From: Eledone cirrhosa
Lineage: Eukaryota
NCBI GenBank assembly: GCA_964016885.1
Contig: OZ024741.1
Span: 289,540,001-289,604,000 of the forward strand
Length of the DNA stretch: 64,000 bases
Direction of reading: 5' to 3'
The translations under genes were made by a program, and so were the position numbers. This document shows positions 60,757 to 60,851 of the stretch, piece by piece. The notes beneath the pieces were generated by a model, which saw nothing but the letters and a program-made list of their open reading frames with translations, searched no databases and was not told the DNA's origin. Every line of letters begins with the position of its first letter. The first letter of the stretch is position 1.

Positions 60757-60851
60757 ATTTTCAGCAAACAGGTGGAGTACTTAGCTTTGCTAAGTACCAA
60801 AAAGTACGAAACAGAGCTCTGTCAGCTTTATCTCCCCTGTTTGCTGAAAAT
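60757..60851 (+). ncRNA. Variant-core hammerhead (U3-A8, A6C) with a long stem I extension
   Basis: agcu-UUGCUAA-guac caaaaa guac-GAAA-cagagcucug-UC-agcu (60783-60827), enclosed by a perfect 16-bp helix attttcagcaaacagg/cctgtttgctgaaaat. Confidence 0.65.

Follow-up and report, generated by a model that had tools for sequence, protein, structure and literature searches.

The described systems closest to the element reported here are the metazoan non-LTR retrozymes (Cervera and de la Pena, 2020, PMC7229834), the Cercyon Penelope-like elements of Schistosoma mansoni (Cervera and De la Pena, 2014, PMC4209133) and Penelope-like elements at large. About 1,300 matches to minimal hammerheads of the Cercyon type, with U3-A8 in the core, were published for S. 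mansoni (PMC4209133), and U3-A8 was reported as an active natural variant (Perreault, 2011, PMC3088659). For Penelope-like elements, an insertion shape with an inverted copy and a tail on one end was described (10.1101/2021.04.23.441226). A Penelope origin of animal retrozymes has been argued from co-occurrence and phylogeny (10.64898/2026.07.22.740005).

The locus considered here lies in a window of 64,000 nucleotides (64 kb) from Eledone cirrhosa. The first-pass annotation had claimed a hammerhead with the core UUGCUAA, a GUAC/GUAC stem II, a palindromic stem III, a GUC triplet and a perfect 16-bp helix. Direct reading of the sequence located every one of these elements where it had been placed. 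The features of the copy and of its flanks are as follows, with the line of evidence in brackets.

60592..60669, no strand: (TA)n microsatellite on the 5' side, the likely insertion target, limits approximate (sequence)
60671..60966, + strand: solo copy of the 320-bp retrozyme unit, without the terminal tail of about 26 nt (BLAST against natural copies)
60757-60772, + strand: 5' arm of the stem I extension, a perfect 16-bp helix (sequence, folding, relatives)
60774-60786, + strand: 5' side of stem I, GGAG, followed by the loop strand UACUU and AGCU (aligned to stem I and loop 1 of HH9)
60777-60797, + strand: alternative 9-bp hairpin completed by C6 (folding prediction)
60787-60793, + strand: catalytic core U3 U4 G5 C6 U7 A8 A9 (UUGCUAA), with U3-A8 found family-wide
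60790, + strand: private A6C substitution (comparison with paralogues)
60794-60807, + strand: stem II GUAC/GUAC with the HH9-like loop CAAAAA (Rfam alignment, relatives)
60808-60823, + strand: G12 A13 A14 (60808-60810), stem III and C17 (sequence, Rfam)
60811-60822, + strand: stem III as a 12-nt palindrome, from A15.1 (60811) to U16.1 (60822) (sequence)
60836-60851, + strand: 3' arm of the 16-bp helix (sequence, folding, relatives)
60967..61012, no strand: (TA)n microsatellite adjoining the 3' end of the copy, with approximate limits (sequence)

In stem I, GGAG pairs with 60832-60835 and AGCU (60783-60786) with 60824-60827, and on the way from AGCU to the 16-bp helix the stem passes an internal loop (5x4), a stem of 4 bp and a single bulged U. 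Sequence, Rfam alignment and covariation agree on three helices around the core with the ends in stem I, as in a type I hammerhead. U4, G5, A9, G12, A13, A14, the A15.1-U16.1 pair and H17 are all as such a ribozyme requires, the pair between positions 3 and 8 is of Watson-Crick type (U3-A8, in this copy and family-wide), and cleavage is predicted directly 3' of C17 (60823). The consensus A6 is replaced by C at 60790. The window copy thus reads as a mutated descendant of a hammerhead, not as an intact one. Its score against Hammerhead_HH9 of Rfam was 20.8 bits (E = 0.01), the gathering score being 52, and at gathering level Rfam gave no match anywhere in the 64-kb window. Folding of the hammerhead region gave a z-score of -5.7, with none of 200 shuffles as good.

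A DNA search of the 3.0-Gb genome returned 1,861 first-look candidates; 40 of these were scored, and almost all had 98% identity. The motif sits in a non-coding repeat unit of 320 bp (316-330 bp, GC 0.32-0.34) with one type I hammerhead per unit, which agrees with the definition of a non-LTR retrozyme (150-450 bp, non-coding, GC below 50%). Head-to-tail tandems occur as dimers and as arrays of six units at 316-bp spacing; most of the copies occur as dispersed single units or in inverted pairs. When the genome was searched by pattern for U3-A8 cores joined to a different stem II, 2,962 further matches came up, and 24 of the 25 loci fetched from them aligned to the unit at 83-97%. As an estimate for which the alignment check covered these 25 loci, the family would count its close copies in the hundreds and, in sister subfamilies, some 3,000 matches. 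The exception, L146, holds a canonical-type U3-A8 hammerhead (UUGACAA, stem II GGGG/CCCC) that does not align to the 320-bp unit. In locus L158 (1460-1540), an internal duplication of 40 bases has given a single unit two cores, of which one has A6 and the other C6.

The window copy is a single unit in one orientation, without tail or tandem partner. Its 3' end lies at 60956-60966, where it merges into (TA)n, and any target-site duplication of more than 4 bp would be masked by the (TA)n on both flanks. It differs from the subfamily majority at five of 296 positions (1.7%), one of them C6. No open frame of at least 100 aa overlaps it. A short piece of another repeat lies at about 60249-60328 of the window; the same piece occurs downstream of the copy in locus L030, where it adjoins a canonical minimal hammerhead-like motif on the opposite strand.

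Elsewhere in the window, a near-perfect 183-bp inverted repeat (97%) was found at 61605-62000, with a 30-nt spacer, a 29-nt duplication at its centre and (TA)n on one side. An open frame of 528 aa with His, Gly, Ser and Asn runs lies at 23525-25111 (+ strand). It gave no Pfam match, carries an eh1-like motif, and is likely to be the first exon of a gene for a transcription factor. A homeodomain exon, which would bear on whether the copy is located in an intron of this gene, was looked for and none was found in the 64-kb window.

The first-pass annotation had read U3 and A8 as covariation of the 3-8 pair, and the paralogues bear this out: they carry UUGAUAA, not CUGAUGA. When the core was left free in the search, the window subfamily showed UUGAUAA in 82, U3 in 100, A8 in 98 and A6 in 95 of 100 copies (the first 100 of 367 matches listed). 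A second subfamily showed UUGAUAA in 91, U3 in 100, A8 in 98 and C6 in none of 100 (the first 100 of 125 matches listed). Searches in this stem I and stem II context gave seven matches with a non-A8 core and seven with a non-U3 core, among which no C3-G8 copy was present. A canonical-core ancestor of the 320-bp family was also searched for and none was found. Since the paralogues carry UUGAUAA, a descriptor restricted to C3-G8 would miss the family, as had been anticipated for CUGAnGA searches. Thousands of hammerheads of canonical architecture can escape such descriptors in this way, so that ribozyme counts in animal genomes are too low.

A ratio of U3-A8 to C3-G8 hammerheads of about 140 to 1 was considered and not upheld: 21 matches were obtained with the mirror pattern, which overlooked most units of a 466-bp family. 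This unrelated 466-bp tandem repeat carries a canonical CUGAUGA type I hammerhead (loci L109-L116, L123, L126 and L127) and forms long arrays with 99% identity and covarying stem II, and it represents a second retrozyme family in the genome. Its core is CUGAUGA in 40 of 41 cases over ten loci, and its loop 2 usually begins with U. Minimal U3-A8 hammerhead-like motifs are also present in the window. One of them (61081-61115, + strand; UUGACAA, 4-bp stem II, palindromic UAUA) lies about 230 bases downstream of the hammerhead, and no exact paralogue of it was found in the genome. A head-to-head pair occupies both strands at about 14120-14225 (UUGAAAA, stem II GCAG/CUGC); the GCAG/CUGC motif occurs also in L087 and L161 and belongs to a separate repeat family.

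Position 6 behaves differently from the 3-8 pair. In the context TTAGCT-TTG.TAA-GTACCAAA it is A in 369 copies, C in the window copy alone, G in one and U in two (n = 373). With a looser pattern, 37 changes at this position were counted genome-wide, of which C is the rarest (G 19, U 13, C 5). The five C6 copies are scattered over different subfamilies, none has spread as a C6 lineage, and in L156 and L158 the neighbour of the C6 core in the same locus has A6. A check on whether paralogues keep UUGCUAA had been proposed at the outset, and they do not. The doubly variant core is not a family feature. Decay had been envisaged for the case that paralogues carry CUGAUGA: this core was not found in the stem I and stem II context of the copy, and decay is likely at position 6. 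Core changes amount to 18 of 700 positions (2.6%) among the first 100 of 367 matches listed, against 2.8% outside the ribozyme, and five random changes would strike the 13 core bases at least once with a probability of 0.20. A hairpin-templated origin of C6 was considered and is not needed, an exact upstream template being present in only two of the five C6 copies. All five have a GU-type stem II, a bias that is not significant (5/24 versus 0/13, P = 0.14).

C6 may also be a mistake of the assembly or an allele found only in the sequenced individual, at a locus that usually has A6. In contigs from four DNA runs, depth at 60790 is nearly all A, and the sole non-A depth (16.3, run X1) equals that of a contig with three other differences, which is likely another copy. 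These figures have to be read with the fact that contigs drop rare variants and that the family collapses at 60790, so that absence of C6 is not demonstrable from them. With four other C6 copies in the assembly and a change that fits the background rate, an error or private allele is considered very unlikely.

The predicted effect of C6 goes beyond the loss of a consensus base. For the window copy, the minimum-energy fold predicted in place of the hammerhead is a perfect 9-bp hairpin (60777-60785/60789-60797). This hairpin needs C6, and according to the prediction it locks up G5-A9 together with the 5' strand of stem II in monomer and dimer alike. Predicted stem II probability is 0.18 in the monomer and 0.01 in the dimer of this copy; A6 copies from its subfamily reach 1.0 and 0.91, and their dimer is predicted to fold as a double hammerhead. 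The C6 copy of L156, which has a different upstream sequence, retains stem II in the prediction. These models leave out tertiary contacts between loops 1 and 2 and co-transcriptional folding.

The claim that U3-A8 and A6C had each been reported as natural variants was confirmed in the literature. In a mouse-gut hammerhead, A6C brought the rate down from 0.30 per min to 3.6e-6 per min (0.3 mM Mg2+), and A6C ribozymes were active in Mn2+ and at 10 mM Mg2+ (0.33 per min) (PMC7151607). A6C was elsewhere published as slow, with less than 0.1 per min (PMC3088659), and the natural C6 of phage Bcep176 cleaves slowly and prefers Mn2+ (PMC7151607, PMC3088659). UUGCUAA could accordingly be a selected functional double variant, as first proposed, working for instance as a slow or Mn2+-preferring ribozyme or as a hairpin-gated switch; the stems are intact, the phage precedent exists and C6 happens to complete a perfect hairpin. 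Intact stems are nevertheless expected in a copy diverged by only 1.7%, the copy has no tandem partner, and the hammerhead fold is not predicted even as a dimer. Together with the isolation of C6 and its lack of any lineage, this makes selection for the double variant highly improbable. With high confidence, C6 is instead regarded as a rare private mutation in a solo copy of a U3-A8 family, a copy that is likely unable to cut. Lacking a tandem partner, and with C6 both damaging the core and completing a hairpin that hides it, this copy of a U3-A8 non-LTR retrozyme is probably dead, an insertion that would lead no further and decay neutrally. On this view the double variant is in itself unimportant, being decay.

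The stems of the family were examined in 21 hand-picked relatives, which are kin, so that the cells counted exceed the number of independent events. Among 555 cells, 97.3% pair (shuffled 91.9%, slid controls 33-45%), and the covariation score is 0.258 against 0.153 after shuffling. Both partners have changed at three of the four pairs of stem II and at a single pair in each of stem I, stem III and the long helix; this total of 6 of 27 pairs is not above shuffling, with 183 of 500 shuffles as high. In the 16-bp helix, 96.3% of cells are paired and one of 16 pairs has changed on both sides. When the three closest subfamilies are compared by themselves, none of 31 ribozyme sites differs, the overall figure being 23 of 285; the contrast is not significant (P = 0.15). 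Even between subfamilies that differ by as much as 17%, the core is constant, and stem III is a palindrome or close to one. Since the stems covary, it is argued that the ribozyme of the 320-bp family has been under selection.

The arrangement of the copies points to Penelope-like elements. From 132 loci, 93 remained after removal of duplicates and of loci without a central match; in 56 of them an inverted copy is present and both 3' ends face outward, 32 show a single orientation and five are of other types. A tail is found on one end only in 34 of the 56 inverted loci and on both ends in none, and TA follows 101 of 119 family 3' ends; these counts need care, as the unit has a short AT run near its 3' ends and the tail class is bounded by the end of the query. 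The family thus shows the inverted truncated copy, the one-end tail and the (TA)n target of Penelope-mobilised insertions. The unit lacks the reverse transcriptase (RT) and GIY-YIG frame of an autonomous Penelope-like element, and it is inferred to work like a Penelope passenger, not as an autonomous member. Penelope-associated dimeric hammerheads were reportedly treated in a 2017 paper in RNA Biology.

Three loci join the two kinds of repeat. In L067 (L160:2014-4609), a same-strand copy with Penelope-like RT/GIY-YIG runs directly into the 5' end of the retrozyme; it ends inside its own U3-A8-like motif, the remainder of which was not found downstream. The inverted arm of L012 (L159:4274-5808) is a 5'-truncated Penelope-like copy, and a third, less clear 5' junction is present in L066 (L161:2051-3530). 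Retrozyme and Penelope-like elements favour the same sites, which bears on how these 5' junctions are read. On their motifs, the fused fragments are assigned provisionally to Penelope-like elements. Pfam gave RVT_1 (E = 0.0013) for one of five Penelope-like fragments, and a PDB search did not name them. In seven Penelope-like or flanking fragments from the loci studied, the tail region had no match, and within this scope no autonomous element sharing sequence with the 320-bp family was found.

In A6 monomers, stem I and U3-U4-G5 are predicted to pair with half of the palindrome, and in 20 of 23 subfamily A copies this off-fold lies 3.4 kcal/mol from the hammerhead fold. The corresponding prediction for the sole natural C3 copy is 6.0 kcal/mol. 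The family may for this reason be past the need of cleavage, spreading as a Penelope passenger or by tandem amplification at the DNA level with the U3-A8 hammerhead as a weak relic, all the more as hammerhead cleavage was dispensable for Penelope transposition in vitro (PMC11167929). Such a relic would not be expected to keep its core unchanged in subfamilies up to 17% apart, compensate stems I, II and III and preserve the palindrome, and relaxation of this kind is rated as very unlikely.

Dimers would provide a way out of the off-fold. Among 13 A6 copies, a double hammerhead fold was predicted clearly for seven, partly for one and not for five, the latter all from GCUU stem II subfamilies. 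In five of seven natural tandems, stem III is predicted to pair between units, with stem II only partly formed. Five natural monomers, taken from cleavage site to cleavage site, are predicted to fold as stable circles (z from -4.3 to -6.5, 30 shuffles each). Under the proposed cycle, tandem units would be transcribed, the two palindromic stems III would pair and open the core, and the double hammerhead would cut after C17. The unit-length RNA would likely circularise, and a Penelope-like reverse transcriptase/GIY-YIG endonuclease would copy it into (TA)n. A retrozyme cycle of the same kind has been described (PMC7229834). Eight of nine tested retrozyme dimers failed to cleave (10.64898/2026.07.22.740005), so an intact motif is no guarantee of activity. 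A tentative reading, at somewhat less than even chances, is a dimer-gated ribozyme that is off in the monomer and on in the dimer, with U3 weakening the off-fold, and with the fused copies as products of template switching. If true, the fused copies would be direct genomic evidence of a Penelope enzyme copying retrozyme RNA. The fused insertions also point to candidate partner enzymes, and the family, with its subfamilies, compensated stems and single core mutants, offers a natural series for studying dimer-dependent cleavage.

Compared with the metazoan non-LTR retrozymes (Cervera and de la Pena, 2020, PMC7229834), the 320-bp family likewise has a non-coding, GC-poor unit within 150-450 bp that bears a single type I hammerhead, copies both in tandem and solo, a stem III whose palindrome suits dimers and a predicted circle that is strongly self-paired. 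The published retrozymes have canonical cores and a stem III of 1-2 bp, whereas this family has U3-A8 and a 12-nt palindrome, consists mostly of dispersed singles and inverted pairs, and is described here from genomic DNA. That paper is not known to contain a U3-A8 retrozyme. The Cercyon elements of S. mansoni (Cervera and De la Pena, 2014, PMC4209133) are alike in U3-A8, in copies on the scale of a repeat and in the link to Penelope. Their motifs are minimal, stem II being long and stem III nearly absent, whereas the present family is HH9-like (4-bp stem II, CAAAAA, internal loop in stem I) and resides in a non-coding unit. With respect to Perreault (2011, PMC3088659), A6C in the window copy is a one-off, like the repeat-borne cryptic mutants discarded there. 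Penelope-like elements (Craig et al., 2021, 10.1101/2021.04.23.441226; Frangieh et al., 2024, PMC11167929; Li et al., 2026, 10.64898/2026.07.22.740005) share the inverted 5'-truncated copy, the one-end tail, the (TA)n targets and a hammerhead in the repeat; unlike them, the 320-bp unit has no reading frame, and its tail measures about 26-36 nt against 30-40. No published description of the 320-bp family or of a U3-A8 retrozyme was found in the literature searched; such motifs may be contained in the supplement of PMC7229834. U3-A8 itself, A6C and retrozymes being already known, the 320-bp family is a U3-A8 form of an element type described before, and the window copy a likely inactive member of it.
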